Source: Candidatus Poribacteria bacterium
Lineage (GTDB): Bacteria > Poribacteria > WGA-4E > PCPOR2b
Assembly (NCBI GenBank): GCA_965208325.1
Contig: OZ242326.1
Coordinates: forward strand, 4,544,001-4,608,000
Length of the DNA stretch: 64,000 nt
Reading direction: 5' to 3'
In this document: positions 214 to 22,600 of the stretch, in pieces
Numbering within the stretch: position 1 is the first letter of the stretch
Layout of the letters: each line of letters begins with the position of its first letter
Position numbers and translations under genes: made by a program
The notes under the pieces: model-generated
Told to the model about the DNA's origin: nothing
Database searches by the model: none
The model's input: only the letters and a program-made list of their open reading frames with translations

Positions 214-1638
214 TTATGAATTTCCCGATAATTTGGTTTTAAGTTTTTCCACGGCATCTATCGCATCGGAAATTTCCTTTTTGACCAAAGGGACAATGTG
301 GGAATGGCTGAGCGGGTTAAGGATTATACTTCGGTACAGTTCGATGTCGTCAATGAGGGTTTGTTCTAAGAAGGGTGTACAATCGCTTGTACTTCCCTGT
401 TTTATTGGATCCCAGAAATCTTCACTTTGCAATTTTTTCGGATTGTCACTGTATGTTACTCGGAGTTTATTCGTTGCGCAGAATTTCTTGATAGCAGTTT
501 CAAAGGCGGTGCGCAGGTAGATTGCGCTGGCTTTGTAGTCGTTGTCGTCGAAATAGTCTTTCGCTTTCTCAAGATACGCTTTATCTTCTGCATAGACCGG
601 AATCTCGTATTCATCGGTTTTCGAGGTATAAAATTCGGCGTATTTCCATTTCGCATCGGGCGTCCGCTGTTTGGCAATCTCATACCACGTTTTATCATAG
701 GTCGTCAAAAAGATTTGGTGGTCTGGAAAATACTCGTTTAAGATATCAAGCACCGGCAGGCGGTTTGACGTATCCAAGCCGATTAACACATCGTCCAAGG
801 CGAGAATCTTCAGGCGGCTTTCCGGTTGAATCAGGATTGACGAGAAATAGATTGCGATAGCAATCGCCGATAACCTCGCCTCGTTGAGGAAGCGGTGATG
901 TTCGGGAATATTTTTATCAAAGAGCTCAATCGTTAACAGAATTTCCTGATTATCAAGCGTTTTGTTGTCACGGTTGTATTGAACGCCCGGAAAATCGAAG
1001 TTAAGGGCAACGTTGTGTCCAAACTTGCCAAGGATTTCAGATGCGATTGGCTGAAGTTCCGCTAATCTATTTGTTAATTCGGTATTGAAGGCTTCTGTCT
1101 GTTTTTCTAAATCTGAAATTTTGCCTGTAGCGTTTCGACGTGGATACGGCGGCTGAATTGCAGCCCAATCGTCGTCAAGGGTCCGATTCGTCAGGGTACT
1201 GACGGTGTTTGCCAAGAGCGTCTCAACCAGCAAATCGAACACATTAACTGTATCACTTTCACGATGGAGGTAGTGCGTGTCCAAAAGCGACTTATAATCG
1301 AGAAAACCCTTTGCCTTCGATGCCTCAATAATCAGTTCGTCGTCCGTTTCTCTAACGCTCTCCGACCATTCGTAGGTCTCCTGTTTTGACCAGCGATCAG
1401 CGCGGAGACACAGTTTTATATAGCCCGCATCCGTAGTAAAGATATTTTGATCGTTTTCAAATCTATGCGACGGATCATCGCCGGATTCCAAGAACAGTTT
1501 TAACGCAAAATACAGGGACGATTTTCCGCTCCCATTTTCACCGTAAACCAGCAAGTTCTTTCCTTTGTTGTGTAGGTTAATTCGGTATGTTCCGTAAAAG
1601 GCTTTGAAATTTTTGATTTCAATTTCGGTAATTCTCAC
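214..1638 (-). CDS. ABC/SMC-like ATPase with C-terminal PrrC/RloC-type HEPN (putative anticodon nuclease) domain
   Basis: Walker A GENGSGKSS; degenerate signature FLNEARL; Walker B/D-loop ILALDDVLIGLD; C-terminal RTAFE (RxxxE) and NPLSH (NxxSH) as in the PrrC/RloC HEPN domain. Start overlaps the upstream stop (ATGA, 1635-1638). Confidence 0.75.
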   Translation of the reverse strand: MRITEIEIKNFKAFYGTYRINLHNKGKNLLVYGENGSGKSSLYFALKLFLESGDDPSHRFENDQNIFTTDAGYIKLCLRADRWSKQETYEWSESVRETDDELIIEASKAKGFLDYKSLLDTHYLHRESDTVNVFDLLVETLLANTVSTLTNRTLDDDWAAIQPPYPRRNATGKISDLEKQTEAFNTELTNRLAELQPIASEILGKFGHNVALNFDFPGVQYNRDNKTLDNQEILLTIELFDKNIPEHHRFLNEARLSAIAIAIYFSSILIQPESRLKILALDDVLIGLDTSNRLPVLDILNEYFPDHQIFLTTYDKTWYEIAKQRTPDAKWKYAEFYTSKTDEYEIPVYAEDKAYLEKAKDYFDDNDYKASAIYLRTAFETAIKKFCATNKLRVTYSDNPKKLQSEDFWDPIKQGSTSDCTPFLEQTLIDDIELYRSIILNPLSHSHIVPLVKKEISDAIDAVEKLKTKLSGNS

Positions 1639-4600
1639 GCCTTATCCTCAATTATACGGATCGGTTCTACACTATCCAGAAAGAAAAGGTTGATCCGGAT
1701 CTGATGTGTTCTTTCATACAATCGCTCGAAGATTTCCTGTAACGATACCATTTTATCACCTCGAATTTCTTCAATCTCCGGCAACCCTTCGTCTAACAAT
1801 GGTTTGAAGAACTGTTTATCCCCGTGATGCAGTTCTTCACTCAGATAGGATTCATAAACCAGTCCGTCAACGATTCGTTCAAAATAGCCGAGCATTATGA
1901 AGTCGCGGGCGTGTGCCAAATCTTTGCCGCTCGTCGTCGGCTGTCCCTGAAGGTAAATGAGGTAATCGACAATTTTACCAATCAGTGATTTCTGCGTTGG
2001 TGTAAGATCGGGAACAGGGATTTCCTGCATATATCGGCTGCGCGCCCGAAGATAATCGCCAGTTAATTGATCTGACACTTGCGAATAGAACCACTCCACA
2101 ACACGGGAATTGAGGAGACCGCACAACCACGTCTCCTCAGTCGGGATAAGGTAGCATGTATCCCCGCAGAAAAGACCTTCCGTATCGACGGCGAAGGATT
2201 GACGGTCGTAGCTGTTTGGGCAAACCAACTTCGTTTGCGTAAAGCGTTCGGCGTCGCTTTTGGCGGCGGGTAATTCATACCATTTCTGTTTACCCGTTCT
2301 TTTGCTCAAGGGGGCTCTATATTTTTCCAAGTGTTTTCGGATGGCGGGATAACGGTCTATCTCTATGCGACGATAGGCAAAAATCAACCATGTATCCGGT
2401 TTTGCTACCCTCCAACGCCTGATATCCCGTCCGTGCAAAAACGGCTTCAAAACTTCAGTGGATGCAGGGTGCTCCGCAATGAGTCGATCTCGCGTCGCGC
2501 TATCTACGACAAAGGCTCCGCTGCTACCGGTCTTGATTCCGAAAGTAGGACGCGATTGGACGTATTGAGACAAAGGTGTGCCCGCGTTGCGTAGTTTCGC
2601 TAGGAGATTCAACACATCGGACGATTCAAGGGGCGTACCTTCGAAACTCGAGAATTTTTCCGTCTTTGGGAATCGACTCCGCCGCGGTTGCGACAGCATG
2701 TCAGCGATGTCCATCGGCAGATTCACACGATGTCTCTTCTCGAAGGCCTCAACGCTTTTGTAGTCGTTTTGGAATCCGGCGATGATATCCACACCGTTGT
2801 CTTTAGCAGTGTTCAAATCCTTGCGGGCATTTTCCCATTCTTTCAACCGTAACCACGCTTCACCGCGATTATAATAGGCGGCGACAAAAACCGGCTCCAA
2901 GTTTATCGCTTTGTTATAATTTTCAATGGCACGGTCAATCTCGCCTTTGCTATAGTAGGCTACTCCGCGATTGTTATAAACAATGGAAAGCCGCGGATTG
3001 AGTTCTATTACTTTGTTAAAGTCAACAATGGCACGGTCATGTTTGCCAATGGTGATATAGGCATTGCCCCGACCATTATAGGCTTCGACAAGATTCGGTT
3101 CGAGCTGTATCGCCTTGTCAAAGTCGGCGATGGCACGGACATAATCACCTTTGTTGCGGTATGCGGCACCGCGATTGCTATAAGGCTCGGCGTAATCGGG
3201 TTTGAGTTCTATCGCACGGTTACAGTCTACGATGGCAAGGTCAAAATCCCCCTTTCCCCGATAGACAGCACCGCGATTGTTGTAAGCTATGGCATAATCG
3301 GTTTTGAGTGCTATAGCCTGGTTAAAGTCTTTAAGGGCAAGGTTTACCTGATCTTTTTTGCCGTATGTGATACCACGACTGTTGTATGCCTCGGCAAAAT
3401 CTGGTTTCAGTTGTATTGCCACGTTAAAGTCTTCAACAGCACGGTTAAAATCACCCTGTTCGTCGTAGGCAATACCGCGATCGCTATATGCTATGGCAAA
3501 ATCGGGATTCAGCTCTATCGCTTTATTGAAGTCGTTGAGAGCAAATTGAACATTACCTTTGTTCTTAAAAGTAACGCCGCGATTGTAGTAGGCGTTCGCA
3601 TAACCGGGGTTGAGTTGAATTGCTTTATCAAAGTCTTTGATGGCACAATCGAAATCCTCTTTGTCATGGTAAGCCCCCCCACGATTATTATATAGCTCGG
3701 CGAGGTTTGGTTTCAATTGTATTGCCTTGTTAAAGTCTGTAATAGCACGATCATATTCCCCTTTTGCTTTATGAACATTACCACGACTATTGTAGGCGAT
3801 GGTACAATTAGGATTGAGTTCTATCGCCCTGTTAAAATCCTCAATAGCGTGGTCAATCGCACCTTTTTCATGAAAAGCATTTCCGCGATTGACATATTGA
3901 TCGGGAAACTTTGGACTCATTTTTATCGCTGTATCAAAATCTACGATAGCCCGGTCAAACTCGCGTTTCTTTTGGAAAGCAATACCGCGGTTGTTATAGA
4001 CATCAGCATGATTGCGTCCGCGTTGGATTGCCTTGTTAAAATCTGAGATGGCTCGGTTATAATCGCCTTTATTGTCGTAGGCAATGCCACGATTGTAAAA
4101 GGTTTCGGCATAATTGGGATTCACCTCTATTGCTCTGTTAAGGTCTTCGAGACCGCGGTCAAGTTCCCCTTTGTCAACGTAAGCAGCACCACGGTTGCTA
4201 TAGATAACCGCGTCATACGGGTTTATTGGTATCGCCGTGTTATAATCTTTAAAGGCGCGGTCAAAATTACCCAACTTTTGGTAAGCTACGCCGCGATTGT
4301 TGTAGGCATCGGTATCACGTGGATTGAGTTTAATTGCCTGTGAATAGGCTTCTATCGCCTTGTCTATTTCTCCGAACATCATGAAAACGTTGCCTTGTTG
4401 GAATGCCAATTCAGCAAGTAATTCATCGCCAAAAGCGCTGGAAGCTGAATCCGCGTGAGATAGCATTTTGTCGACGACTTTTCGGATACCCGTCACTACA
4501 TTTTGCCAACCTTTGCTCTGAGGCCTCCACTCGTTAATGGGCTTGACTTTGTGCGGCAGAACCTCAAACCGACTGAGTTGATGATGCTCCCAATCACAAG

Positions 4601-4892
4601 CCTCAAGGATGATAGAGATGACTCTTATGTTTGCGCGTAAGACGTCAGCTAATTCTTTATTACAGTTTTTCGACGCGAGACTCGCAGCGGAGGTAAGATA
4701 AAGTAAAATGTCCGATTCGGCAAGATTATCTGAAATATCTTTTTCCCACTCGTCGCCCGGAAGAATTTTGTTATCGTCCCACAACTCTATCTTGCCTTCA
4801 TCCGCCATTACAGCAAGGCGCGTTTGCAATTCGATGTTCTGCTGTAGGTCTTTATGTGAATATGTAATGAATACTTTTAGTGCGTTGTTCAT
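1635..4892 (-). CDS. TIR domain + about 16 TPR repeats + TaqI-like C-terminal target-recognition domain (chimeric protein)
   Basis: N-terminal TIR_2 motifs VFITYSHKD, WDDNKILPGDEW, CNKEL; 16 repeats of the A-Y-N-N-R-G type; C-terminal region aligns by eye with the methyltransferase TRD at about 7060-7730. Start placed at ATG 4892 because the ORF extension to 4952 runs through a repeat element. Confidence 0.85.
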   Translation of the reverse strand: MNNALKVFITYSHKDLQQNIELQTRLAVMADEGKIELWDDNKILPGDEWEKDISDNLAESDILLYLTSAASLASKNCNKELADVLRANIRVISIILEACDWEHHQLSRFEVLPHKVKPINEWRPQSKGWQNVVTGIRKVVDKMLSHADSASSAFGDELLAELAFQQGNVFMMFGEIDKAIEAYSQAIKLNPRDTDAYNNRGVAYQKLGNFDRAFKDYNTAIPINPYDAVIYSNRGAAYVDKGELDRGLEDLNRAIEVNPNYAETFYNRGIAYDNKGDYNRAISDFNKAIQRGRNHADVYNNRGIAFQKKREFDRAIVDFDTAIKMSPKFPDQYVNRGNAFHEKGAIDHAIEDFNRAIELNPNCTIAYNSRGNVHKAKGEYDRAITDFNKAIQLKPNLAELYNNRGGAYHDKEDFDCAIKDFDKAIQLNPGYANAYYNRGVTFKNKGNVQFALNDFNKAIELNPDFAIAYSDRGIAYDEQGDFNRAVEDFNVAIQLKPDFAEAYNSRGITYGKKDQVNLALKDFNQAIALKTDYAIAYNNRGAVYRGKGDFDLAIVDCNRAIELKPDYAEPYSNRGAAYRNKGDYVRAIADFDKAIQLEPNLVEAYNGRGNAYITIGKHDRAIVDFNKVIELNPRLSIVYNNRGVAYYSKGEIDRAIENYNKAINLEPVFVAAYYNRGEAWLRLKEWENARKDLNTAKDNGVDIIAGFQNDYKSVEAFEKRHRVNLPMDIADMLSQPRRSRFPKTEKFSSFEGTPLESSDVLNLLAKLRNAGTPLSQYVQSRPTFGIKTGSSGAFVVDSATRDRLIAEHPASTEVLKPFLHGRDIRRWRVAKPDTWLIFAYRRIEIDRYPAIRKHLEKYRAPLSKRTGKQKWYELPAAKSDAERFTQTKLVCPNSYDRQSFAVDTEGLFCGDTCYLIPTEETWLCGLLNSRVVEWFYSQVSDQLTGDYLRARSRYMQEIPVPDLTPTQKSLIGKIVDYLIYLQGQPTTSGKDLAHARDFIMLGYFERIVDGLVYESYLSEELHHGDKQFFKPLLDEGLPEIEEIRGDKMVSLQEIFERLYERTHQIRINLFFLDSVEPIRIIEDKA

Positions 4893-4902
4893 TTTCTTTT
4901 TT

Positions 4903-4977
4903 CTGTCTGAATCGCGGATTGAGGAAAAACACGGATTGAAGAATCCGCGCAATCCGTTTCATACGTGATTCAGACAG
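4903..4977. repeat. Palindromic element with terminal inverted repeat CTGTCTGAATCGCG...CGTGATTCAGACAG
   Basis: 13/14 terminal inverted-repeat match, with internal GGATT/AATCC repeats. Related copies at 6793-6893 and a half copy at 90-117. Confidence 0.85.
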
Positions 4978-5027
4978 TATTTTCCTCCTCAATCGCAATT
5001 ACCTCAGAGTCTGATGCCCGGCAAACT

Positions 5028-6752
5028 TTACACTCCCGGTGGCGAAAGCATTACGGCGATATCTTCCGGTAGTTCCACGTTATTCTTCTGCTCAAAATGC
5101 GCCACGCTTTCATAGTCTTTGCGAAACAAAGCGACAATATCCGCTCCCTTCTCTTTGCCAATTGACAGATCTTCTTTTGCGTTTTCAAATTCGCTCTGTT
5201 GTAACCAAAACACACCGCGACTGTAATACGCAGTAGTAAAGTTGAGTTCAATCGCCTTGTCATGATCTTTTATGGCTAAGTCATACCTTCCTGAATCTCC
5301 GTGAACTTTCGCGCGATAGTCGTAAGCTTCGGCAAGGTCCGGTTCAAGCCCTAACGCTCTGTCAAAGTCTTCAATGGCGTGATAATACTTGCCTTTTTTA
5401 GCATAAGCTATTCCTCGATTGTTGAAGGCATTAGCATAGTTGGGTTTCAGGTCTATCGCTTTAGTATAGTTCCCAATAGCACGATGTATCTTGCCTTTAC
5501 AAAGCCAAGCATTGCCACGATTGTTATAGGCCTCTGCATAATTTCCGTTCAGTTTTATCGCCGAATCATATTCTTGAATAGCCCGGCTATAATCACCTGT
5601 CGCGGCAAAAGAAACTCCGCGATTATTGAGGGCATTAGCATTATTAGGGTTAAGGTCTATTGCTTTGGTCAGGTCCTGGATAGCGCGGTCTATCCTGCCA
5701 TTGTGGAAGAACGCCTTGCCACGATTGATATAGGCGTCGGAATGGGATGGTTCAAGTCTTATCACGGAGTCATAGTCCCCTATAGCGGCGTCATAGTTGT
5801 TCTTACGACTATTTTCGCAGCCTCGATTGTAATAGGCATCAATATCTTTAGGATTCAGGTCTATTACTTTGGTATAGTCCTCAATAGCACGGTCAAAATC
5901 GCCTTCATCGCCGTAGGCACGTCCGCGATTGAAATAAGCGTCCGTAAAATCAGGTTTAACTCGGATTGCCTTTGTATAGTGTTCAATGGATTCGCCATAC
6001 TGACCTGAATGCTGACAGGCAACGCCTTTGAAAAACAGAGTGTATGCCCCTTCGTGTATTCCTTGATGGATAATATATCCATGTAGATCGTTGTAGATGG
6101 TTTCTTTGGAGATTCCGTGGTACCTTCGCAGATGCTGTAGGAGCGGATGTTTTAGTGTGGCCGGAATAAACACTATGTCCTTCTCATATGGATCAATAAA
6201 GCCCTTCGGTGGGCGAAGAAATACGCTTTTTTGGGCAATTACGCGGTGTCGTGGATTATTAGGATGTCTAATCATGTTTTTTATCGATTCGGTGTTTTGT
6301 ATGACAACTCGGCCCTCTTCCTGTGGAAATCCGTCGCATGCGAAGAAAAGAGCAATGAAATAGTCGGTTGTGAAGTCTATCAGGTTTGTGGCACCACCGT
6401 AATGTTGGATCTCCGTGAGAAGCTCAAAATTCGCGGCGTCTCTGGTAGATTCTTTGGACACATTCATAACTGCATTGAGATCTGATTGAATGTCCTGTGC
6501 TATATGCCCTAAATGCTTTTTGGCGCCATTCAGCATCTCGTTTTGGATTGCTTCTATATCGCAGTGTTTTGCCTCCTCGCGATACTTACGCCAGAGTGTT
6601 GAGGATACTTTTCCGTAGTAGGGATCGCCTTCATGCCGTTCAGGTTCTCCGCGGAATAAGTACGTACCGTCTACACATTTTTTCTCAATCACGTGGATAA
6701 CGTCCTGAACTGTTCGGAGTTTTTGATTTGCACCGTCGGATTGATTTGACAT
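5028..6752 (-). CDS. FRG domain + about 9 TPR repeats
   Basis: FRG motifs YLFRGE, QHYGGATNLIDFT, ALFFAC, RVIAQKSVF; 9 TPRs; GGAGG RBS upstream of the ATG. Confidence 0.88.
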   Translation of the reverse strand: MSNQSDGANQKLRTVQDVIHVIEKKCVDGTYLFRGEPERHEGDPYYGKVSSTLWRKYREEAKHCDIEAIQNEMLNGAKKHLGHIAQDIQSDLNAVMNVSKESTRDAANFELLTEIQHYGGATNLIDFTTDYFIALFFACDGFPQEEGRVVIQNTESIKNMIRHPNNPRHRVIAQKSVFLRPPKGFIDPYEKDIVFIPATLKHPLLQHLRRYHGISKETIYNDLHGYIIHQGIHEGAYTLFFKGVACQHSGQYGESIEHYTKAIRVKPDFTDAYFNRGRAYGDEGDFDRAIEDYTKVIDLNPKDIDAYYNRGCENSRKNNYDAAIGDYDSVIRLEPSHSDAYINRGKAFFHNGRIDRAIQDLTKAIDLNPNNANALNNRGVSFAATGDYSRAIQEYDSAIKLNGNYAEAYNNRGNAWLCKGKIHRAIGNYTKAIDLKPNYANAFNNRGIAYAKKGKYYHAIEDFDRALGLEPDLAEAYDYRAKVHGDSGRYDLAIKDHDKAIELNFTTAYYSRGVFWLQQSEFENAKEDLSIGKEKGADIVALFRKDYESVAHFEQKNNVELPEDIAVMLSPPGV

Positions 6753-6792
6753 TTTTTTTTATTCCTCCAGAATTATATATTGTTTGTTGGCA

Positions 6793-6893
6793 TCTGAATC
6801 GCGAATTGCCTACACCTCAAAGGATTTCAACAGATATAATCCGCGCCACGAAGTTGGACTATCTTCAATGTGCGTAATCCGTGATTCAGACAG
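6793..6893. repeat. Palindromic element TCTGAATCGCGAATT...AATCCGTGATTCAGA overlapping the methyltransferase stop codon
   Basis: 13/15 inverted-repeat match; same family as 4903-4977. Confidence 0.8.
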
Positions 6894-9800
6894 TATTTTT
6901 CTCCACGACCGCAATTTCTTCATCAGATAAATCGTACAATGAGTATACTATCTGATCAATCTCATTTTCAAGTTCGGATACATCGGCGTCCGGGTCAGCG
7001 CGTTTGGCAGCGAGGATTTGATTGACTATGTTGGTGATGGACGCTTTTTGCGCTGGTTTGATAGAGGGAATAGGAATCTGAGAAACATATTGAGCAATAA
7101 ATCTCACAAAGCCACCCCGAATCTGCGTGCTTGTCTTTGTATAGAACCAAAACACGGTTTTGCTATTGAGCAAACCTAGAAGCCACATTTCCTTAGTCGG
7201 TAGAAGGTACAACGTGTTACCCAAAAAATAACAGTCATCATCGAAGGCAAATTCGGCTCCTTGTGCGATATCAGGGTAGACAATTTTCGTTTTCTCAAAC
7301 TCTTTCCAATAAGCACACGCTCGCAACTCCCAGAAATACTTCCCCTGATCGTACCGCTCAATGAGTCGGTCTCGAAAGGTTTGTAGGCGGGCGTGGATTG
7401 CGGGATACGTATCGGCAAAAATCGCCTCCGCCTCTACGGCAGATTCCTCCGACCACGGATGCGTCCGATTTTCCGACGATTCAATTTTGATGAGGTACTG
7501 CTCGGCGAAATTCACACCCCAGCGTTTCACATCTCGTCCGCGCAATAACGGTTTTAACACTTCAGCCGATGATGGATGATCCGCAATGAGTTGATTCCGC
7601 GTCGCTAGGTCCACAACAAATGCTTCGTTCAAACCTGTTAGGACACCTCGATAAAACCTTCCTTTGACATATTCCCCTAACGGTTTACCCGTGTTTCGGA
7701 GTTTCTTCAGCAGGTCTAACATTATTGGGGTGGTGAGCCGCCAACCGTCAGCGGTCAAGGCGTTTTGCGGCATGGTGAACCCCCGTGTTCGAAACACCGT
7801 CCCGAATTCGTCAATAGAGGACCCCGGCTCCCAATTCAGGGCGCGGAGATGATTCCCTTGAGCGTGGGGTTTGGACGCTGTGATAATACTTGGATAAGCA
7901 ATTGACGTAAAAACGGGGGCATCACCAAAGTCGATGAGTTGAGATACAGTGGATTTACAGGCGAGGAAATCTCGAAGTTTCTTACCGTATGCAGCTCGGA
8001 AATACTTATTGGACGAGATGTAGGTCAGGACTCCATTATCCGGCAGTAATTGAAAACCGCGTTCATAAAAATAGACGTAGAGATCGGCTGTGCCGGTGTA
8101 ACAGTCGTACTGCGTTTTCAACGTCGGCTTGAGATCTTTAATTTTCTCTTGGCGAACATACGGCGGATTGCCAATCACCACATCAAACCCTTCGGCGATA
8201 CCAAACATCCATTCTGGGTCAAACCAATCTGCTTCTTTATTCTGATCGTAGGGCTTCCAACTTGCGATTTTGCTGGCGTCTTGAAAACTGGAATCAAATT
8301 GGTTCTTACGCGCCTTATACTTTTTTCGTTCCTCCTTTAGTAACTGTTGGCGATGTTCAGTTTTCGGAAGTTGTGCGACTTTTCGGTCTATTTCTCGTTT
8401 CTGACGCTCCATCCATGATGCTCTCCGGCTGTCCAGTTCTTCTTGCAACCGTTCGCGACTTTCGTCCTCCAGCTCTTCGAGGTGAAGCTTCTGTCGTCGA
8501 TTATTTGTTAGATAATACTTTTCACGAATTCCCTCTATTTCTTTTATTAATTGCCGTACAGCGTCCTCTTGGAGTAACAATCGGGTTTCGGCTAACTGCA
8601 AGCCAATCAGCGTATTCGCGGCAACGAAGCGAGTTTCTAGATTCGGCAGGGGCTTAATTCCGAAATTGGCAACGGTCTCATCTACGACCTGTTCAATAGC
8701 AAGCGAGACAAAGAATCGGAGTTTGGCGATCTGGCACGCCTCAGGTTGGATGTCGACGCCGAAGATGCTGTTTTGTATCAGATACAACTTCCGTCCAAAG
8801 TCTGAATCGCGGTAACGTTCAAACGTATCACTAATTTCCTTCAGTTCGTCATCGCGCGCCTGCTGGTTTGAGATTTTGAACGCCGCCTGCGCCCGACGCC
8901 CGGCGCGGTCGCGCTGTAACTGTTCCCAAAGCGTGTTATCCGGATCAAGCCGCCGCAGCGCAAGGGTCAATTTGTGCAGCACACCCATCGGAAACGCGCC
9001 GGAACCGACCGCAGGATCCAGTATCTTCAGATTTGAAATCGCCCGTACAAGCCCGTTTATCTCATCGTCATCAAACCATTCGCTCGCATCGTCGCAGACT
9101 TGGGCATAATCCAACAGATAGTGCAATCGTTCATTCCAGAGTTTCACATCATCGTCCGTTGGCGACACTTGTTCTCCCAGCGTTGCAATTAACGCTTCCT
9201 CTACCATGTAGTCTACAATAGGACGCGGGGTGTAGTAGGAACCAGTCTGTTTACGTTTAGTTTCCCCAGTTTCAGGATTGTATGCGGCAAGCAGGTTTTC
9301 GAACACCTTGCCGAGCAGTTCAGGATCCAGCGCAACCTCCTGCTCTATCGGCGTGCTTTCCTCAACGGTAAACTTGTAGTGCGTCAGCAAGGAAATCAGA
9401 CCATCGTCACCAAAGAACAGACGGTTGGGAAGGCTAAGTTTTCTGAAATGCTCATCGGAAAAACAGTCAATGCGGGAACCTCCCGCTCTCATGCCCTTGA
9501 AGTCGTCCAGACAATCGAACAACCCTCCGTTGATGAATGGTGTTTTGCCAAACAACGCTTCAAGCGAATCCGGGTCATTCATCTGATCTTTGTAGCGATA
9601 TACGGAGAAATTTCGATGGTCGGGTTTCCCTTTACTGAACCGACGCTCGTCAATCTCGGTGTTCAACGTGGCAAAGAACAAGTTCTGTAATACCGCACGG
9701 TAGTAGGAATCTCCATTGTCACGATTGTAGTCCTTTAGCAAGAGAGTAACTTCGCGTTCGTCGAATAGTTCCTCCGCAACCAACCCCTTCTCTTTAATAA

Positions 9801-10605
9801 ACCAGACGAAAAGCAGACGCGTGATTAAGCGGATGACGTGCTGCTCCGTTTTCAGATTTCGTTTTTCGTTCTCCGGGAATCTTGATTCACAAACTGCCAA
9901 TTTAAACCAATTGAACAGCTTAAGGTAGAACTCCCTGTTAAGTGCTTCGGTGTCCAACGTAATTTTCCACGCCTCATGGAGTTCTTCAAAATTCGAGAAC
10001 TGGCGTGTACGGTGTAGTTCCGAAATCGAGAGATCGAACAAGATGTTGATGTGGGCGCGGTGGGGTTTAGCGAAATCAATATCTTTAATGAGCGTCACTT
10101 TTTCAAGGACATCTTTGGATACGTTGCGCTTGTGCAACCGTCGGTCGATTACGGCGAGGGTGAGCGTTTCGCCGTACTGGAATAGGACCATTGCGGGTAT
10201 CATGAGCAGTCTGTTGATTTCGCGCACGATGTCCGATAGTTGGGTGCGGGTGTAGCCGCGATTTTGTAGTTTTAGGGCGAAAAAGAGGTAGGATTCATAG
10301 CGATTTTGGTCGAAAGCGTTGCGTTCGAATCCCAACGTGGTTTGAGCGCTCTGGACGATTTCCTCCTCCGTCAGTTGGAAGAGGAGGTCTATGGATTCCC
10401 ATTCATTCAACAACCCCCGCTCCCGGTTCAACGTGTTATGTGAATCGAAGTGATTAATGAATCCGTCGGCGGTGTTGGGTTCAAGGTCAATCCGTCGTTC
10501 GCTGTGATAACCGAGGACGGTGAGAAGGTTTCGGGCGTTGTCGTCGAGGTTACCGTCGGCGAAGTGTTGTAGGGCTGTTTTGATGTTTTCTTTGGATGTG
10601 GTCAT
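6886..10605 (-). CDS. Type IIG/Eco57I-like N6-adenine DNA methyltransferase with TaqI-like C-terminal TRD
   Basis: LGKVFE, GSYYTP, motif I ILDPAVGSGAF, GVDI, motif IV IGNPPY (gamma-class order); C-terminal TRD (KPLLRGRDVKRW, KIVYPDI, LLGLLNS). Confidence 0.92.
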   Translation of the reverse strand: MTTSKENIKTALQHFADGNLDDNARNLLTVLGYHSERRIDLEPNTADGFINHFDSHNTLNRERGLLNEWESIDLLFQLTEEEIVQSAQTTLGFERNAFDQNRYESYLFFALKLQNRGYTRTQLSDIVREINRLLMIPAMVLFQYGETLTLAVIDRRLHKRNVSKDVLEKVTLIKDIDFAKPHRAHINILFDLSISELHRTRQFSNFEELHEAWKITLDTEALNREFYLKLFNWFKLAVCESRFPENEKRNLKTEQHVIRLITRLLFVWFIKEKGLVAEELFDEREVTLLLKDYNRDNGDSYYRAVLQNLFFATLNTEIDERRFSKGKPDHRNFSVYRYKDQMNDPDSLEALFGKTPFINGGLFDCLDDFKGMRAGGSRIDCFSDEHFRKLSLPNRLFFGDDGLISLLTHYKFTVEESTPIEQEVALDPELLGKVFENLLAAYNPETGETKRKQTGSYYTPRPIVDYMVEEALIATLGEQVSPTDDDVKLWNERLHYLLDYAQVCDDASEWFDDDEINGLVRAISNLKILDPAVGSGAFPMGVLHKLTLALRRLDPDNTLWEQLQRDRAGRRAQAAFKISNQQARDDELKEISDTFERYRDSDFGRKLYLIQNSIFGVDIQPEACQIAKLRFFVSLAIEQVVDETVANFGIKPLPNLETRFVAANTLIGLQLAETRLLLQEDAVRQLIKEIEGIREKYYLTNNRRQKLHLEELEDESRERLQEELDSRRASWMERQKREIDRKVAQLPKTEHRQQLLKEERKKYKARKNQFDSSFQDASKIASWKPYDQNKEADWFDPEWMFGIAEGFDVVIGNPPYVRQEKIKDLKPTLKTQYDCYTGTADLYVYFYERGFQLLPDNGVLTYISSNKYFRAAYGKKLRDFLACKSTVSQLIDFGDAPVFTSIAYPSIITASKPHAQGNHLRALNWEPGSSIDEFGTVFRTRGFTMPQNALTADGWRLTTPIMLDLLKKLRNTGKPLGEYVKGRFYRGVLTGLNEAFVVDLATRNQLIADHPSSAEVLKPLLRGRDVKRWGVNFAEQYLIKIESSENRTHPWSEESAVEAEAIFADTYPAIHARLQTFRDRLIERYDQGKYFWELRACAYWKEFEKTKIVYPDIAQGAEFAFDDDCYFLGNTLYLLPTKEMWLLGLLNSKTVFWFYTKTSTQIRGGFVRFIAQYVSQIPIPSIKPAQKASITNIVNQILAAKRADPDADVSELENEIDQIVYSLYDLSDEEIAVVEKNTV

Positions 10606-10639: not shown

Positions 10640-11115
10640 AGGGCAGGCACAAGACCTGCTCCTACATTTTCACTTGGTCAATTTCTGCGGGGGCAACGCT
10701 TTTGTTTGTCTTGCTGATGTCGGGAATCGGAATTCCCTCCTACAGGGAGCATTTTGTAGGAGCGATTTCCGAATCGCGACCGGGCATGTTATATTCATTT
10801 AGGTTCATATTTACACAAGAGGATTGACTGATTGATAATCGAGGCTAGGAAGTCTCTCCCACAAACCAATGAGCAAATGTATGATTTTTCCCGTTCAGGA
10901 GAAACTGCGTGTTTATGAACCTCCACCTCCTTGGTAAGGAGGGGAATGATACGTTTTTTCGGTTCTCATTCAACCGTTCGGCTGTGCGTGTCTTGATAAT
11001 CCTCCCCTTTACTAAGGGGGAGCTAGAGGGGGTTGGTTGCGTATGGTCGGGAATTGGGAAGACTATCGCCTTCGCTATTCGCTCAGTTGATCCCTCCTTG
11101 CTAAGGAGGGGAATA
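10640..11115. repeat. Cluster of GTAG-type REP-like palindromes and CCTCCTT-NNTAAGGAGGGG hairpin repeats
   Basis: GGGCAGGCACAAGACCTGCTCCTACA (10641-10666); GGGAATCGGAATTCCCTCCTACA; TGTAGGAGCGATTTCCGAATCGCGAC; CCTCCTTGGTAAGGAGGGG; CCTCCTTGCTAAGGAGGGG; CCCCTTTACTAAGGGGG. Confidence 0.8.
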
Positions 11116-11192: not shown

Positions 11193-12473
11193 TCACCTCG
11201 TGTCGAGATGGGTGGTGTACCAGAGGCTGCCTGTTGGAATCCCTTCTGAAGAATGGTTGCTTACGGCGGGATGGTCGCTGGCGCGACGGATTGTGGAGTA
11301 GCCGTCCTCGCCCTTGTCTAGGATCCAGACCTCGTTCGGCTCCAACAGATCGACAAAATACGGCTGGTGCGTCGTGATGAAGACTTGCGATCCGCCTCTG
11401 CGCCCGGTGACGTATTCACGGAACTGTTTGGCGAGCGACTCCAAGAGTTTGTGGTACAAACCGTTTTCGGGTTCTTCGATACAGAGGAACGGGGGCGGCG
11501 CCGGGTCTTTTAGCAGCAGCAGGTATGCGAATAGTTTTAGTGTTCCGTCGGACATCTGCTGGGCGTAAAACGGCGCGCGAAAGCCTTTGTCGTTGAACCT
11601 GAGGAGCAGACGCCCGTCACTGGTTCTTTCCGTGTCGATCTGATCTACGCCCGGGATCTTGTCGGCGATCTCTTTGAGAATCGCGCCGAATCGGCGCGGA
11701 TGTTCGCGTTCCATGAATTGGACGACGTTGCCGAGGTTATCGCCGTGGATGTTGAGATGCTGCTGGGGACCGGCGCGCGGCAGGCTGCGCGCCGCGTCCG
11801 GCGTGAAGTAGCTGAGATACCAGCCTTCAATGAATTGCCGGAAAGCCGAGATTCGCGGGTGTTGTTTCAGGGCGCCGAGCGTGGCGATGCCGAGTTTGCT
11901 CCGATCTTCCAATTCGATGATTTCGGTCTGGCTGGATTCGTCCGCAATAATCAGCTTGATGAGTTCCGGGAAATCGAGTTGCTCCATCTTTTCGTCAATC
12001 TGATGACCCGCCTGTTTGCCCTTCCACGCCACGCCTTTGCCGCCGTTCAGGAACAAGAACGAGAATGGGCGGCCGTATTTCTGGCCTTTGCGCCTCTGTC
12101 TGAGGCGCTCTTTCAAGACAAACGGGCGTCCGGTCTCCTCTACGGCGATGGCGATTTCGTAAGTCATGGGCCGGGCGTTTCCGTGCTCTCTATAGTACAC
12201 CTCAAACTCGATGGGATCGGACTCGCCTTGTGTACGGATTTGCTCGAACCCGCCGCGTCCGCGCGTACCGCACGCCTCCTCAACGCCGGTCTTTAGGGCG
12301 TCAGCGAGGAAACCGAACGCATCGAAAAGCGCGCTTTTGCCGACGCCGTTCTTGCCGATGACTGCGGTCATGAGCGTGAGCGGTTGTATTTCCCGTTGGT
12401 TCCAAAGGCGCCCCAATGTCACATCTTTGAGTACCTTGAAGTTTTTTACTCTGAAGCCTTCGATTTTTGCCAT
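11193..12473 (-). CDS. AAA_21/AbiEii-like ABC-type ATPase
   Basis: Walker A GKNGVGKS, signature MSDGT, Walker B LCIEEPENGL, H-loop ITTH. Confidence 0.85.
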   Translation of the reverse strand: MAKIEGFRVKNFKVLKDVTLGRLWNQREIQPLTLMTAVIGKNGVGKSALFDAFGFLADALKTGVEEACGTRGRGGFEQIRTQGESDPIEFEVYYREHGNARPMTYEIAIAVEETGRPFVLKERLRQRRKGQKYGRPFSFLFLNGGKGVAWKGKQAGHQIDEKMEQLDFPELIKLIIADESSQTEIIELEDRSKLGIATLGALKQHPRISAFRQFIEGWYLSYFTPDAARSLPRAGPQQHLNIHGDNLGNVVQFMEREHPRRFGAILKEIADKIPGVDQIDTERTSDGRLLLRFNDKGFRAPFYAQQMSDGTLKLFAYLLLLKDPAPPPFLCIEEPENGLYHKLLESLAKQFREYVTGRRGGSQVFITTHQPYFVDLLEPNEVWILDKGEDGYSTIRRASDHPAVSNHSSEGIPTGSLWYTTHLDTR

Positions 12474-12520
12474 GATACTGTGTTGGTTGGCAGAACGCGA
12501 TCGGTTCCGCGGCTACAAAA

Positions 12521-13522
12521 CTACGCTGATGCCATCCGCGCCATTATCTTATCTGCTAATTCTTTGAAATCACGACGGGCGGCATTTGCCGCAACGGCAT
12601 GGCTTCCGATAGCTCCGTCAGCGGGAGTGAGGTGAAAGATGGGCTTTCGCGCTTCCTGCGCCATTGGCACCAAGCTCCGGTAGTGCTTAACAGTGGCGAG
12701 GGCATTTGCTTTATCCTGTTCCGGCGTCTGAGGGTAAGGTCCGTCGTTGTCATCGAGCAGATTTCGTGCATATTCCTCCGGCATGCGGTTGACCCATTTG
12801 TCATACGCCTTAACAGGCCGCCCCAAGCGGACGCTGTGCTGCTGTACCACATAGCCAATTGGTTGAATTAATCCGCTAGGTATAGGTAGGTCAGAGATAG
12901 GGTTGCGGTCGTATCTATCCAACCACCCATTGCGCCAATCGTGCAGCGTTGGACCGAGGTTCCGCAACCCTTGAAGCGAGAATAGATCTGCTCCAAGTGG
13001 AACGATAACGTAATCTGTCGCCACTAGCACTGCCCTATTCAAAGCGCCTAAATTAGGGCCGACATCTACTAAAACAATCTCGACCTGATTACTTTCCGCC
13101 GCGTTTTGCAAAATGCGCCATAGCGCCGAAATTACCCGGAAAGCACGAGGGCGCCTATCAAGGCACTCTGGCCATTGGCTGGAAAGTTCATCTTCTGTGG
13201 CTGATAAAGCGAGGTCCCCCACGATGAGACTCAATTGCGGCGTAAAAATCTCCAGATGAGGATTTTCAATGTCGCCAGTTCCGTCTAAAAGCGGTTCAAG
13301 TGCACTATAGATGGATTTTCGGGGCCCATTGTCGGGCCAGAGTATTTCTAGTTGGTCTTCATTGATAAACATGCTCGTTAGGTTTGCCTGCGGGTCGAGA
13401 TCACAGGCAAGGACGCGGTGACCGATGTCGGAAAGCATCCACGCTAGATGATAAACTAACGACGTTTTGCCAACACCGCCTTTGTTGTTAAAGAATGTTA
13501 AAACTGGAACCGGCATTGTCAT
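12521..13522 (-). CDS. ParA/Soj-family ATPase (AAA_31)
   Basis: Deviant Walker A NNKGGVGKTS, DLDPQANLT, VLVDVGPNLG. Start overlaps the upstream stop (ATGA). Confidence 0.9.
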   Translation of the reverse strand: MTMPVPVLTFFNNKGGVGKTSLVYHLAWMLSDIGHRVLACDLDPQANLTSMFINEDQLEILWPDNGPRKSIYSALEPLLDGTGDIENPHLEIFTPQLSLIVGDLALSATEDELSSQWPECLDRRPRAFRVISALWRILQNAAESNQVEIVLVDVGPNLGALNRAVLVATDYVIVPLGADLFSLQGLRNLGPTLHDWRNGWLDRYDRNPISDLPIPSGLIQPIGYVVQQHSVRLGRPVKAYDKWVNRMPEEYARNLLDDNDGPYPQTPEQDKANALATVKHYRSLVPMAQEARKPIFHLTPADGAIGSHAVAANAARRDFKELADKIMARMASA

Positions 13523-14742
13523 GTCCTCACAGGATTTCTGGCGATTTTAATTGTAGTTAGCACGTAACTGCCATTTACCTTAAATTCGGGTTCCGGGTGT
13601 CCGGCTGCTTTGAGCGACATTCTAGCAATCGGTATTCCCATGCCGTACCGCTGCACAAAACCGAGGTTTTTCATGGCTTCCGCTAAATTGGGGTTACGAT
13701 AGTCGGTAAGACCGGGGTGACCGAAATTCTCGGTGGTCACAGCCCCGAAGGCGCCGCCAGGGCTCAACACCTCAATGCGGTCATTGAACCACGACACACG
13801 AATCGGCGCATTGGTTGCTTCGTAGCTCCTATGCATCACCGCATTCCGAGTAATCTGTTGCACCGCCATCATGGGATAAAGCGATGTTCGTTGTTCGACG
13901 TTACTCGTCGTAATATCGACAGCGATGCGGTTGTGCGCGTTTAGTTTATCGTCGAGACGGCGAAGAAGGTCCGGAATTGCGCCGCGAATCTCCTCACTGT
14001 CAACTATATCGTCGGTTAGCTCGCCGCCATCAATTTTGAGGAACTGGACGTAAGCGCCGGGAAGAAAATCTTGTGTATTCTTACCAAGCACCAGGATTCC
14101 GAGCACTGTTGCGATTCGTCCATCGCCTGGAGCGATCATTTTAGTTGCAGCCAATCGTTCCTCAGGAGTGCGTTCATTGGCTTCCAATATTTCCGTAGGG
14201 ACAACCTGCGGCAGATATTCATTCTCGAACTGCGCAAGGTTTAGGTCAGAGATGCCGGCTGTGGGGATAGGATTTATGTCGAAGGGGATATCTCCATATC
14301 GCCGCTTTTCGTTGAGAATGCTTTCCTCCTGCGCTGTCGCGATGCCGCGGCGCGGACCAATACGGATATGGATAACACCCTTGTACCGAACCGGCGGCGA
14401 GTTAGATGGTTGCACCGTGACCAATGCAATTTGCCTTCCGCCCAGCACACACTTTTCAACGGTTAGTGAAGGCGGCGGTACGATATTCCCGTCGGTTTTC
14501 ATATCAGCCAATTGGCGGAGCAATTCGTTCGTGACAGTTAACCCCGCGATAGATTTGTCGTTCCGTACCCCGACGAAAACAAAGCCTGGTTTTTCGCGGC
14601 GCGGCAAATCGTTGGCAAATGCACAGATGGCTTCCCTGATTTCTTTCGGGGCACTGCCGGATAGTGCCTCTTTGAACTCAACTCGGTCGGCTTCATCGTC
14701 TTCTATAATTTGCAGCAGTTCCTTATCTGTAAGATTCGGCAT
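13519..14742 (-). CDS. Schlafen/AlbA_2 domain + RecG-C-like HATPase_c_4 domain protein
   Basis: N-terminal EADRVEFKE and ICAFAN..G..FVGV (AlbA_2); C-terminal NAVMHRSY, DRIEVLSPG, RNPNLA, G.V.RYG.GI. Start at ATG 14742 preferred over GTG 14754. Confidence 0.85.
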   Translation of the reverse strand: MPNLTDKELLQIIEDDEADRVEFKEALSGSAPKEIREAICAFANDLPRREKPGFVFVGVRNDKSIAGLTVTNELLRQLADMKTDGNIVPPPSLTVEKCVLGGRQIALVTVQPSNSPPVRYKGVIHIRIGPRRGIATAQEESILNEKRRYGDIPFDINPIPTAGISDLNLAQFENEYLPQVVPTEILEANERTPEERLAATKMIAPGDGRIATVLGILVLGKNTQDFLPGAYVQFLKIDGGELTDDIVDSEEIRGAIPDLLRRLDDKLNAHNRIAVDITTSNVEQRTSLYPMMAVQQITRNAVMHRSYEATNAPIRVSWFNDRIEVLSPGGAFGAVTTENFGHPGLTDYRNPNLAEAMKNLGFVQRYGMGIPIARMSLKAAGHPEPEFKVNGSYVLTTIKIARNPVRT

Positions 14743-14882
14743 ATCAATTCCCACTCATTCTAAATCAAGGTTACCGACTGTGCTTTCCACTACAACCCGG
14801 TATGTGATGCCATGAATATTTTCCTATTGATGACTTTTTTGGTTGATTATGCTCGAATTGACCGTTGAATCTTGGAAATTCG

Positions 14883-15242
14883 TCAAGTTCTTTCTTCCCG
14901 CCCCAAGAGTGTTTCGACTCTCTGCAGAACTGCGTCTACCGTCTTTGCGGGCAAAGGACAAATCAACTCGGCGTTGCGCGCCCGCCAATCCGCGCTCTTG
15001 ACCTGATCCGCCAGTATAACGCCCGACACATCCAGCCCCGCGGGGATGGCGACCTCAAAGGGATAACCTTTTTCACGATTGGTTATTGGACACAGAATCG
15101 CCAAGCTGACCTTGCCGTTATAAGCCTTCGGTGAAAGCACAACGGCGGGACGGCGTCCGCTCGGCTCGCTGCCGGCGCGGGGATTTGGGTCAAGCCATAC
15201 TGCATCGCCGCGCTGTGGGACGTACTCGAATCGGGCTACCAT
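14883..15242 (-). CDS. mazF: MazF/PemK endoribonuclease toxin
   Basis: YVPQRGD, P.AGSE..GRRPAVVLSP, CPIT, GYPFEV, ILADQVKS.DW.AR. Confidence 0.95.
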   Translation of the reverse strand: MVARFEYVPQRGDAVWLDPNPRAGSEPSGRRPAVVLSPKAYNGKVSLAILCPITNREKGYPFEVAIPAGLDVSGVILADQVKSADWRARNAELICPLPAKTVDAVLQRVETLLGREERT

Positions 15243-15478
15243 GTTTCGCTGCCTACCGTGCCGACAGTGTCTACTTCACCGTGCAGGTTGTGGTCCGTTA
15301 CCTGTGCCAAAAGGTCATCTAGCGCAAGACTGGCGGGTCTCACCGGAACGATGACCAGATTTGTCCCGCTAAGCGATAAGTCTACGGTTGAGTTGGGTTC
15401 GAGTCCAATTTGGTTTGCCAGCGGCTTGGGAATCCGCAGTGCAAGGCTATTGCCCCATTTCTGTACACGGGTTTCCAT
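15236..15478 (-). CDS. mazE: MazE/AbrB antitoxin
   Basis: QKWGNSLALRIP; C-terminal NLHGEVD...VGSETW; overlaps the mazF start; AGGAG RBS. Confidence 0.95.
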   Translation of the reverse strand: METRVQKWGNSLALRIPKPLANQIGLEPNSTVDLSLSGTNLVIVPVRPASLALDDLLAQVTDHNLHGEVDTVGTVGSETW

Positions 15479-19659: not shown

Positions 19660-22600
19660 TTACACGTTACGTGCGCTTTCCCGCAACTGCTCGATTTTTT
19701 CTCGCACCTCATCAACAAAGGCTCTATAGACTTCATGATTGATTGCCGCGCCGTCCTCAGAAGCACGGAGGGTCATTGGCTCACCGAAAACCACCTTAAT
19801 TTGCTTCCTGCGCGGCAAGTTTTTGCCTTTGGGCAGCGCTTGGTATGCGCCGTCAATATATGTTGGGACAACCGGCGCCCCGGTTTCGTAGGCGAGCAAT
19901 CCCAGCCCGGCTTTGAATGGTTGGAGTTCGCCTGTGACTGATCGTGTACCTTCCGGATAGATGAGTAAGCAGCGGTTTTCAAGCATAATTTCGTGGGAAG
20001 TCCGTACATCCTGCAGAAACTGCGAAAAATTGTCTTTCCGTTCGAAAGGCAGAAACTTAAAAAGTTTGCCAAAGAACCATGCTTTGAAGCGGGTATTGAA
20101 GAAGTAGTCGCGTGCGGCTAGAATTTTGATGCCCCTCGCTGATTTACCGAGCGCAGTAACTACGGCGCCGGTATCAAGGTGACTTGTGTGGTTAGCGACA
20201 AAGATGCACGGTTGACCGTCCGGGATGTGCGATTTACCGTAAGTTTTGATGGAGAAATACCCGTGATAGGCGATTCGCATGCCGAGCCGCAAAAGGCGTG
20301 TTTTGATTGATAAGTGCGGCAGACCTATGTCAGCATAGGCCGGCGGTTCAGCGCGGGCAGAAATCGTCACGCTGCTCTCAACCTTGTGAATTGCAGGTTG
20401 GGCTTGCAGCGATTTGACGGATTGAATTACGTCGCCGACGGTGCGAATCTGCATGACCATCTCGTCAGGTATGGGATGTTGAATTTTGGCTTCCAGCAAT
20501 AGCAACAGTTCAACTCGCGCAAGCGAATCCAATCCGAGATCGGCGTCCAAGTGATCTTCCAAACGTATCTTTTCTAGCGGCATACGCGACAAACGGCTCA
20601 ATTCAGCAGCAATGGCACCCTCCCAACCGCCAGAAATCCAATCCGGTTGCGCTGAGGAAGTCGACTCATCAGAGGCGTCGTCGGCGCTCTCTCCCGTTGA
20701 AATATCGTCCTGTGTCACGCCAGACAGCCGATCCAATAGCATCTCTTTAACGCGCCGGCGGTGAATCTCAAAGGTTGGTAGTTTGGGCAGTTCCGATTCC
20801 CAAAAATGTAATTTGTGAAGATGTTGATAGCTGGGGAGATCGCGCGCGCAGTTTTGAAGATGTTGGCGAATTTTAGCTTCAACCTCCGCCGGATTGGGTT
20901 TACCCCTTCGATTGGGAACAATGACAGCGTGAACTTCTTCCCCGTGCGAATCGCCGATGTTCACACCGACAACACAGATTTCTGCGATGTCCGGGCTGTG
21001 TTGATACAGCTCTTCAAGTTCGACTGGATATATGTTTTTTCCCGCGCTCGATACGATGACATCCTTGAGACGTCCGGTGATATAGAGATAACCATCAGCA
21101 TCAATGTACCCGAGATCCCCTGTATGCAAGGTTCCACTCCGCATCATGTGTTCGGTCGCCCCCGGGTTCCGGTAGTAACCTGCCATTAGGCTAGGACCTT
21201 GCGCTACAATTTCGCCAATCCCGTCCGGGTTTGGATGATGGATTTGAATTTGTGTGCCTTGTACGGGAACGCCGACAGCCGCCCGCTTACTTTTGTGATG
21301 AGGATTCACGGTAAGCACGGGCGCGGTTTCGGTCAACCCGTAGCCCTGATAAATTGTTAACCCGAAACGCTGGTATGCGTCATAAATTTCGTTGGACAAC
21401 GCCGCACCGCCGCTCACTAGGACACGCATGTTACCACCTAACGCGGCGTGCAACGCTTCAATCGCCGATCGGTCAGGCGGAGCATCTTCCGCAGCGGCAG
21501 ATTTCAACACGTAGCGCATGATAGTGTCATAAATTAACTTAAACATTCGCGGCACGCCTATGACGACAGTTGTCTGTGTTGCCTGCATGGTTTCTAGAAC
21601 AACGGTCGGTTTGAGCGTGTTGGGATAAGTGACCGTGGCACCGCCGTAAATTGACATCAGAAAACAGCAGGTAAACTCCAGCGCGTGATGCAATGGCAAT
21701 ATCGACAAGAACTGGTCTGTATCGCGGGGCGGCAACGCTTGTGCAACAGCGTGGACGTTAGCAATGAAATTCTTGTGGGAGAGCATTACCCCTTTCGCCT
21801 CGACCGTGGTGCCCGCAGTGAAGATTATTGAGGCGATTGTGTCGGGTTGTATATCCACTTTGGGGAAGCCGTTGGTTGGATCGGACACATCACTCTCTTC
21901 GATTGAATCAGATTGGGATTCCAGCGTATGGCCGAACTCTAATGGTTCACAGAAACGATAGATGTTTAAGAGGTCTACCGTAAGTGTGCCGTCGTCGGAC
22001 TGAATTAGTGCACGGTGCAAATGCACAGCCAGCGAATCCGAGGTTAGAATGGCTTTCGCCTCGGTAAACTTGGCGAGTGCAAAGATTTCACGCTCCGAGG
22101 TTTGCCGGTCGACTGGAACAACTGTGATGCCGATGTGTATGGCACCCAAATAAGCGATAGCCCATTCCGGGCAGTTCTCAGCAAAGAGGATGAGGCGGTC
22201 GCCTGAGCGGTAGCCTCGATTCCAGAGGGAACAAGCGATTCGCCGGGAAATGTCATAGAGTTGGCTGTAGGAATACCGTACCCAATTGTCACCGGATTTC
22301 ATCTGAAGCGCCGTTTTATTCGGATGGGATTTGACACGTTCGGCAATCAGGTCTGGAATGGTACGATAAGGCAATTGTGAACTGCCGCCAGCTTCGTCAC
22401 CTCGGATGCTGTCCCCCTCTTCACTTTGTTCAGGTACGGGTTTTTGTCCTTTGCCGCTTTCGAGTTTGAGGATGTGACGCTTGATGCCGGGAATATGAAC
22501 CTCCTGGAGATAATGCCTCCAGTCAAAACGTAAGACATCAAAGTTGAACCGCCGTTGGTCGGACGGATCGAGAGAACGATACAACGCTTCAGTTTTGCCG

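Follow-up and report, generated by a model that had tools for sequence, protein, structure and literature searches.

A TaqI_C-type recognition domain with a dedicated tail, coupled to a predicted ABC ATPase-HEPN protein, in a Poribacteria defence island

Do four neighbouring genes of a Candidatus Poribacteria bacterium make up one fixed defence system, or is only a part of the set held together across genomes? The genes lie at positions 214 to 10,605 of a 64,000-nt stretch (the window; assembly GCA_965208325.1, contig OZ242326.1, here G000:C1:4544001-4608000) in a single-contig genome of 4.7 Mb. A sequence-only reading had proposed them as a four-gene system derived from a rewired restriction-modification (RM) guard module, with a type IIG methylase (gene 1), an FRG-TPR protein (gene 2), a TIR-TPR protein that ends in a target-recognition domain (TRD; gene 3) and a PrrC-like ATPase with a HEPN domain (gene 4). 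Four co-oriented open reading frames (ORFs) were confirmed, all on the minus strand, and nearly all of the proposed domains were recovered with Pfam and PADLOC. However, only genes 3 and 4 are always found together in related genomes, and the claim of a four-gene system is not supported. The conserved working unit is the coupled pair of genes 3 and 4, not all four genes, and the locus as a whole is a mix-and-match defence island rather than a fixed four-gene system.

Gene 3 (1635..4892, minus strand, as all features of the four genes given below) is composed of a TIR head (4428..4892; placed by Pfam, PADLOC and an alignment of heads), a TPR array with a cap in common with gene 2 (2673..4427), a TaqI_C-type TRD (1953..2672) and a tail of ~105 residues (1638..1952), which is the element constantly found just upstream of gene 4 homologues. 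Its longest ORF opens with TTG (4952..1635, 1105 residues); the start is most likely the ATG at 4892, because public gene calls give 1085 residues. Gene 4 (214..1638, 474 residues) combines an ABC ATPase head of the SMC/Rad50 kind (619..1638; Walker A GENGSGKS, Walker B LDD) with a C-terminal HEPN-fold domain that carries R376, E380 and H445 (214..618, stop codon included). The two genes share a start/stop overlap at 1635..1638. The translational coupling suggested earlier is thus real as an overlap, but the sequence reads GTGA instead of ATGA, and gene 4 begins with GTG.

The conservation of this pair was surveyed in two sets of loci. The first comprises 15 loci found via gene 4 in sponge-associated Poribacteria and Latescibacterota metagenome-assembled genomes (MAGs); the second comprises 60 further gene 4 matches from 50 genomes of the window's phylum, each with 14.4 kb of upstream sequence. 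All loci have the tail immediately upstream of the gene 4 homologue (15/15 and 60/60), it is preceded by a gene-3-type TRD in 74 of the 75 (14/15 and 60/60), and an NTGA overlap is seen at the ATPase start in 13/14 first-set and 59/60 second-set loci. At the 75th locus, L020, the tail ends a full Eco57I/TaqI_C methylase of 1230 residues, which itself follows a PLD-SNF2 helicase. Within the phylum, 88 of 176 genomes contain gene 4 (71 of 133 when only good genomes are counted), with as many as five copies per genome.

More distant relatives have other forms of the partner. On a conjugative Nostoc plasmid, a TPR-less TaqI_C protein of 338 residues overlaps the start of a gene 4 homologue of 477 residues (48% identical to gene 4). 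Homologues with 26-35% identity occur in a record of Prevotella sp. oral taxon 299 (L028) and on three metagenome contigs, directly downstream of Eco57I/TaqI_C methylases of 1172-1252 residues (the one of L127 is cut by the contig end), and the L129 methylase has a DUF4391-like N-terminus as in gene 1. A hidden Markov model (HMM) of the tail matches 6/6 TaqI_C proteins located directly upstream of gene 4 homologues (L020, 4e-59; Nostoc, 5e-37; L127, 4e-14; L129, 4e-10; L028, 2e-9; L131, 4e-8) and 0/6 gene-1-like methylases with no ATPase gene directly behind them; gene 1 of the window is among the latter and hence is without the tail that marks gene 4 partners. Only one of seven matches on viral contigs is a full-length relative (30% identity, at a contig end), therefore nothing suggests that the module is phage-borne.

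Gene 4 is a predicted ABC ATPase with a C-terminal HEPN RNase domain of the PrrC/RloC type. Pfam assigns SMC_N (1.9e-12) and the ABC ATPase family AAA_23, and a search of 1.84 billion representatives returned 2608 relatives with E ≤ 0.001; the family is large, with 540 clusters even at E ≤ 1e-30, and most relatives align from end to end. Among 68 aligned relatives, G33, G36, G38 and K39 of Walker A, D282 and D283 of Walker B, and R376, E380 and H445 of the C-terminal domain are invariant. In the full-length model (predicted local distance difference test, pLDDT, 92.9) the head matches SMC/Rad50 heads (Foldseek, E ~1e-12). Because the fold search with the whole protein gave only such heads, the C-terminal 140 residues were folded alone (pLDDT 72.9). 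The top Foldseek matches of this part are all HEPN proteins (2q00, 1wol, 4nqf, 1ufb and 1o3u; template-modelling (TM) scores 0.5-0.63), and VIA-align places 2hsb (Z 13.4), 2jpu (12.1), 1ufb (12.0) and 4nqf (11.7) above the sacsin HEPN domain, SO_3166, Csm6, AbiV and LsoA, with HEPN matches ranging from Z 13.4 to 9.9. Both fold searches and the invariant R376/E380/H445 uphold the earlier assignment of a HEPN domain. Moreover, R376-x3-E380...H445 parallels the putative catalytic residues Arg320/Glu324/His356 of PrrC, as given in the accessible part of PMC1950546, and E380-x3-K384 agrees with Ex3[KR], the HEPN motif described in the accessible part of PMC3710099. The clusters nearest to the C-terminus in the ESM Atlas are unnamed, with AAA_13 at rank 21 (score 0.83), and serve as a lead only.

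The front end of gene 4's partner is exchangeable, and may be TIR, FRG, HNH-like, absent, TPR-less or a whole methylase. Gene 3 itself shows TIR_2 (1e-12), ThsB (3e-22), ~15 TPR repeats and TaqI_C (6e-15) by Pfam and PADLOC, and its TRD is 40% identical to that of gene 1 over 246 residues (E = 1e-51), so that the two are paralogous as had been claimed. Among the best 25 Pfam families for gene 2 and for gene 3, none is an NTPase domain. In the 60 second-set loci, tblastn indicates a TIR front end in 24 TRD-bearing ORFs, FRG in 14 and neither in 20, while two are broken. Three of the 20 (L070, L072 and L115) have a distinct N-terminus in common, which seems HNH-like in L070 and L072 (HNH_5, 24 bits vs a Pfam cut-off of 27.5), and most of the others open with TPR repeats. 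These ORFs range from 594 to 1743 residues because the number of TPR repeats varies. Most of the best 120 relatives of the gene 3 C-terminus in the protein database carry TIR_2 and some have no head, while one, P0312, is a fusion of FRG, TPR and TaqI_C. L101 has the layout of the window reversed: TIR is a gene of its own there, and FRG heads the TPR-TRD-tail protein. Of 33 TIR heads, at least 95% keep the Glu of the CNKEL motif, which is E80 in the gene 3 protein of 1085 residues, and the FRG signature motifs are conserved in 21 FRG sequences.

Further proteins of similar make-up were observed near these loci. An HNH_5 protein (1.3e-10; L028:10874-11746) follows the methylase and ABC-HEPN pair of L028 and echoes the HNH-like heads that are fused to TPR-TRD-tail in L070, L072 and L115. 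In L014, the gene 4 homologue is closely followed by a protein of 263 residues with TPR repeats and a PDDEXK_3 nuclease domain (L014:11611-12402), which may be a further type of effector-TPR cassette. The window genome contains dozens of TPR genes, and a second cluster of them, L010 (G000:C1:2055001-2072000), has arrays up to 84% identical to that of gene 3.

Gene 1 (6886..10605, 1239 residues) is a type IIG-like gamma N6-adenine methylase with an N-domain that resembles DUF4391, a helical spacer, an Eco57I methylase domain and a TaqI_C TRD. The supporting matches are Eco57I (1e-42) and TaqI_C (8e-20) in Pfam and REase_MTase_IIG (2e-115) in PADLOC, and the motifs DPAVGSGAF and GNPPY are present, as found in gamma-class N6-adenine methylases with a C-terminal TRD. 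No conserved PD-ExK (D...ExK) was seen in its N-terminal 400 residues when seven homologues were aligned; this region has matches to DUF4391 (20.9 vs 29.9) and MmeI_hel (21.8 vs 27) that fall below threshold, and its nearest ESM Atlas clusters are unnamed, one with DUF7814 in 14% of its members, again a lead only. A second gene-1-like methylase of the same genome (G000:C1:440684-444123; L029:10684-14132) is 72% identical over residues 1-724, and its frame breaks before the end to give ORFs of 982 and 175 residues.

Methylases of this kind are common in the phylum (427 matches in 134 of the 176 genomes), and one stands upstream of the pair and co-oriented with it in 5/14 TRD-type loci of the first set and in 18/60 loci of the second (18 of 50 genomes). 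Chance proximity was estimated at ~1%, from ~3 matches per 5.6-Mb genome; the linkage is hence real and far above chance. Nevertheless, a gene-1-like methylase is missing from the 14 kb searched in 42/60 second-set loci and from the 10 kb searched in 9/15 first-set loci, several pairs are located among housekeeping genes, and the genomes G083, G086 and G088 possess gene 4 with no gene-1-like methylase anywhere in the genome at E ≤ 1e-40. Gene 1 is therefore often linked to genes 3 and 4 yet separable from them, that is, facultative. The TRD of the adjacent methylase is only 28-30% identical to that of gene 3 in L012, L014 and L018, 40% in the window and 46% in L011, compared with 61-81% identity of the gene 3 TRD between loci. 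The two recognition domains do not co-vary, and a common DNA target is therefore not indicated, although gene 1 of the window is the best match among methylase TRDs to a profile of the gene 3 TRD (209 bits). Gene 1 would be an RM-like first line, possibly working with the PLD-SNF2 helicase described below.

Gene 2 (5028..6752, 574 residues) is composed of an FRG domain, 8 TPR repeats and a C-terminal cap (FRG 8e-12 and TPR in Pfam), and resembles PDC-S15: residues 12-225 match 13 PDC-S15 profiles in PADLOC, the best at 5.7e-15, for which no curated cut-off is given. Its TPR array and cap are paralogous to those of gene 3. About 20 nt past its stop codon lies an orphan copy of the gene 1 3' end (4961..5006; 46 nt, 85% identical), which covers the last codons of gene 1, the stop and 7 further nt. 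Judged from the sequence, gene 2 is a cassette that was inserted separately and is flanked by this orphan end. A separate FRG gene was found in few related loci. Promoter and terminator scans of the locus gave counts at chance level, and a hairpin at 4950-4929 hints that genes 2 and 3 are on separate transcripts. FRG is described in the accessible part of PMC9503650 as a candidate NADase effector of the ADP-ribosyltransferase (ART) superfamily.

Pieces of the same kit lie to the left of the window, where a TPR ORF of 283 residues was observed. At G000:C1:4541154-4542702 (L009:11154-12702), an FRG ORF (257 residues) overlaps a TPR ORF (298 residues) on the same strand, and L019 shows an equivalent split (11677-12378 and 12317-13255). 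These could be a frameshifted FRG-TPR gene kept in two genomes, or two real genes.

How might the pair work? On balance we favour, with somewhat better than even confidence, a PrrC-like guard module whose guardee was reduced to a TRD and tail and then armed with a TPR array and NAD-targeting heads. The earlier idea of a rewired RM guard survives in this respect, since distant gene 4 homologues stand directly behind full Eco57I/TaqI_C methylases while the sponge-symbiont form keeps the TRD and tail only, but the unity of four genes and a common specificity that were part of it found no support. According to the accessible parts of PMC3710099 and 10.1101/2024.01.29.577857, PrrC is held latent by EcoprrI, and the former attributes signal-dependent control to the ABC ATPase domain of PrrC and RloC. 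By analogy, the tail would tether and silence the ABC-HEPN protein. A phage cue, for which foreign DNA and anti-restriction proteins directed against methylase TRDs are candidates, might then be read via the TRD, the TPR array or both. An ATP-dependent rearrangement would free the HEPN RNase to cleave RNA, probably tRNA, and the TIR or FRG head would degrade NAD+ or make a signal, so that the infection is aborted.

Several points weigh against the guard reading. Architecture, folds, conserved residues and linkage statistics are observed, whereas binding, trigger, RNase and NADase activities and phage protection are inferred by analogy. The His motif of gene 4 is atypical (consensus R-x4-N-x3-H vs Rx4-6H), the H445 loop is poorly modelled (pLDDT <50 at model residues 112-115), and Z values near 13 are possible for helical bundles in general. 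Gene 4 has no match to Pfam AAA_13, the PrrC/RloC family, at E ≤ 0.01, and the family is matched by 36/68 relatives, weakly (best 1.5e-6). Many gene 4 copies in the phylum are broken. Finally, no tail was detected in the partners of four distant homologues, namely proteins of unknown kind with 240 residues in L130 and L132, a weak TRD match in L027 and GmrSD in L133.

A more elaborate form of the guard reading, which we regard as possible but rather unlikely, is that the TRD and tail serve as an integrated decoy of the specificity module of a type IIG-like methylase, to be bound by phage anti-restriction proteins or DNA mimics. The tail would then unleash two abortive arms at once, the ABC-gated HEPN tRNase and the exchangeable NADase head mounted on the TPR array. 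If true, this would be a bacterial counterpart of the integrated decoys of plant NLR proteins (nucleotide-binding, with leucine-rich repeats), made from a fragment of a restriction enzyme.

Other explanations fit parts of these observations. The four genes might be an obligate methylation system, in which gene 1 marks self and the gene 3 TRD reads the same site when it is unmethylated and fires the TIR, FRG and HEPN effectors. The order methylase, FRG gene, TIR-TPR-TRD gene and ATPase gene does recur in L019, L092 and L094, in agreement with the co-occurrence that had been expected in related genomes, and both the strength of the methylase linkage and the similarity of the gene 1 TRD to that of gene 3 speak for such a system. 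Elsewhere, however, the genes do not occur as a fixed set. Loci and whole genomes without the methylase, pairs placed among housekeeping genes, the divergent TRDs of adjacent methylases, the insertion of gene 2 and the lack of a tail in gene 1 make an obligate system improbable. We find it about equally improbable that genes 3 and 4 are no more than an addiction pair, where the TRD-tail protein neutralises a HEPN toxin as in toxin-antitoxin modules and the island is stabilised with no sensing of phage. The tight two-gene architecture with its start/stop overlap would suit this, as would the presence of the pair on a conjugative plasmid; HEPN toxins are common in toxin-antitoxin systems, and HEPN-MNT structures are among the fold matches. 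Yet an antitoxin needs no large and variable TPR array or enzymatic heads, and the presence of an ABC ATPase regulatory domain suggests that control depends on a signal, cf. PrrC and RloC in the accessible part of PMC3710099. The roles of addiction and guarding are not mutually exclusive.

Genes 2 and 3 could also encode 'eukaryote-like' TPR and TIR proteins that act on the sponge, their position in a defence island being incidental. Symbionts and pathogens can use TIR and TPR proteins to act on host signalling, the relatives come from sponge-associated Poribacteria and Latescibacterota MAGs, and TPR genes are abundant in the window genome. Against this, the gene 3 N-terminus (MNNALKVFITY...) looks cytoplasmic by eye, the TPR array is fused to a methylase-type TRD and tail that are always coupled to the ABC-HEPN gene, and the heads swap among TIR, FRG and HNH-like types in the manner of defence effectors. 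Moreover, the TPR-less form is on a Nostoc plasmid, methylase-fused forms occur in Prevotella and metagenomes, and nearby genes encode MazEF, a Schlafen-like protein, an AAA_21 ATPase and a PLD-SNF2 helicase. Host manipulation thus seems very improbable.

The surroundings of the four genes contain various other elements. Upstream of gene 1, at 11193-15478 of the window, are an AAA_21 ATPase (MAD3-like), a ParA-like ATPase, a MazE/MazF pair and a Schlafen protein with AlbA_2 and HATPase_c_4 domains. The PLD-SNF2 helicase (1110 residues; G000:C1:4535550-4538882, L009:5550-8882) is encoded outside the window, 5 kb past gene 4 and in the same orientation, with genes for a ParE-like toxin and a carbonic anhydrase in between. 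It is homologous to the helicases that immediately precede the methylase in L020 and L014 and are the likely nuclease and motor there. The helicase of the window genome scores below the cut-offs for DrmD and for antiphage phospholipase D. Dispersed repeats of 80-117 nt (81-89% identical), resembling miniature inverted-repeat transposable elements, border the gene 4 3' end (84-165) and the region upstream of gene 1 (10789-10889), with further copies left of the window at G000:C1 ~4532469-4532585, 4541020-4541109 and 4542706-4542823. An unrelated fusion of 1465 residues, with fatty-acyl reductase, AMP-binding enzyme, carrier protein and acyltransferase parts, is found at 19660-24057.

Taken together, these data define a large ABC-HEPN family whose constant partner is a TaqI_C-type recognition domain with a dedicated tail. 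They also present a natural series from the whole methylase, over the bare TRD-tail, to TRD-tail proteins with TPR arrays and exchangeable TIR, FRG or HNH heads, which offers a route to asking how a guard senses the failure of restriction and whether a fragment of a restriction enzyme can act as sensor or decoy. Sponge-symbiont defence islands appear to be assembled by placing cassettes at a methylase gene's 3' end.

Comparison with known systems places the four genes near several of them. Gene 1 is like type IIG and MmeI-like enzymes in its Eco57I methylase domain, NPPY motif, TaqI_C TRD and weak match to the MmeI helical spacer, but no conserved PD-ExK was seen in the seven aligned N-termini. 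It was rejected as BREX PglX (69.9 vs a cut-off of 500). DISARM was rejected as well: the PLD-SNF2 helicase reaches 148 bits on DrmD (cut-off 610), and gene 1 matches PADLOC DrmMI (3.8e-28) far more weakly than the IIG models; no search for DrmA or DrmB was made. MADS (PMC13662399) was also rejected: gene 4 has no NCBIfam MADS3 match and its PADLOC mad3 match (1.4e-11) covers the ATPase only, and the neighbouring AAA_21 ORF (11193-12473) scores 98 bits against a MADS3 cut-off of 420. MANTIS/Gao_RL was likewise set aside; the accessible part of 10.64898/2026.09.23.753747 describes it as built from a DUF499 AAA+ ATPase, DUF3870 and a methylase of the alpha class.

The effector parts resemble other systems. 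The N-terminus of gene 2 matches the FRG single-gene candidates of PDC-S15, but gene 2 has in addition a TPR array and cap paralogous to those of gene 3, and 14/60 related loci carry the FRG head on a TPR-TRD-tail protein instead. The TIR head of gene 3 is Thoeris-like in its ThsB match and conserved Glu and adjoins a TPR array, whereas here TIR is only one of several swappable heads on the TRD-tail anchor; none of the neighbours scanned is a ThsA-like SIR2, SLOG or Macro gene, and Thoeris was rejected. BcTir/Tpr is reportedly an example of a TIR-TPR defence protein. Membership in Avs or other STAND-TPR systems was rejected too, as Pfam shows no STAND NTPase between effector and TPR in genes 2 and 3 among the best 25 families listed per protein.

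PrrC, the textbook nuclease that guards a restriction system, remains the closest comparison, and to our knowledge its partners are almost exclusively type I enzymes. The literature searched yielded no account of a TRD-tail and ABC-HEPN pair, although the supplements of PMC3710099 may list the family. Gene 4 resembles PrrC and RloC in its N-terminal Rad50/SMC-like ABC ATPase and C-terminal HEPN fold, and resembles PrrC in standing directly behind the specificity-bearing part of an RM-type methylase. It differs in that the partner is a TaqI_C TRD with a dedicated tail instead of the type Ic HsdMSR, and in that this partner has here lost the methylase and gained TPR repeats and TIR, FRG or HNH heads. 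No HsdM, HsdS or HsdR genes were seen among the neighbours scanned, where the partners are of TaqI_C/Eco57I type. Because the type I context and the AAA_13 match are both absent, gene 4 is not assigned to the PrrC family proper. Genes 3 and 4 rather appear to represent a variant of the PrrC/RloC kind of ABC-HEPN guard.

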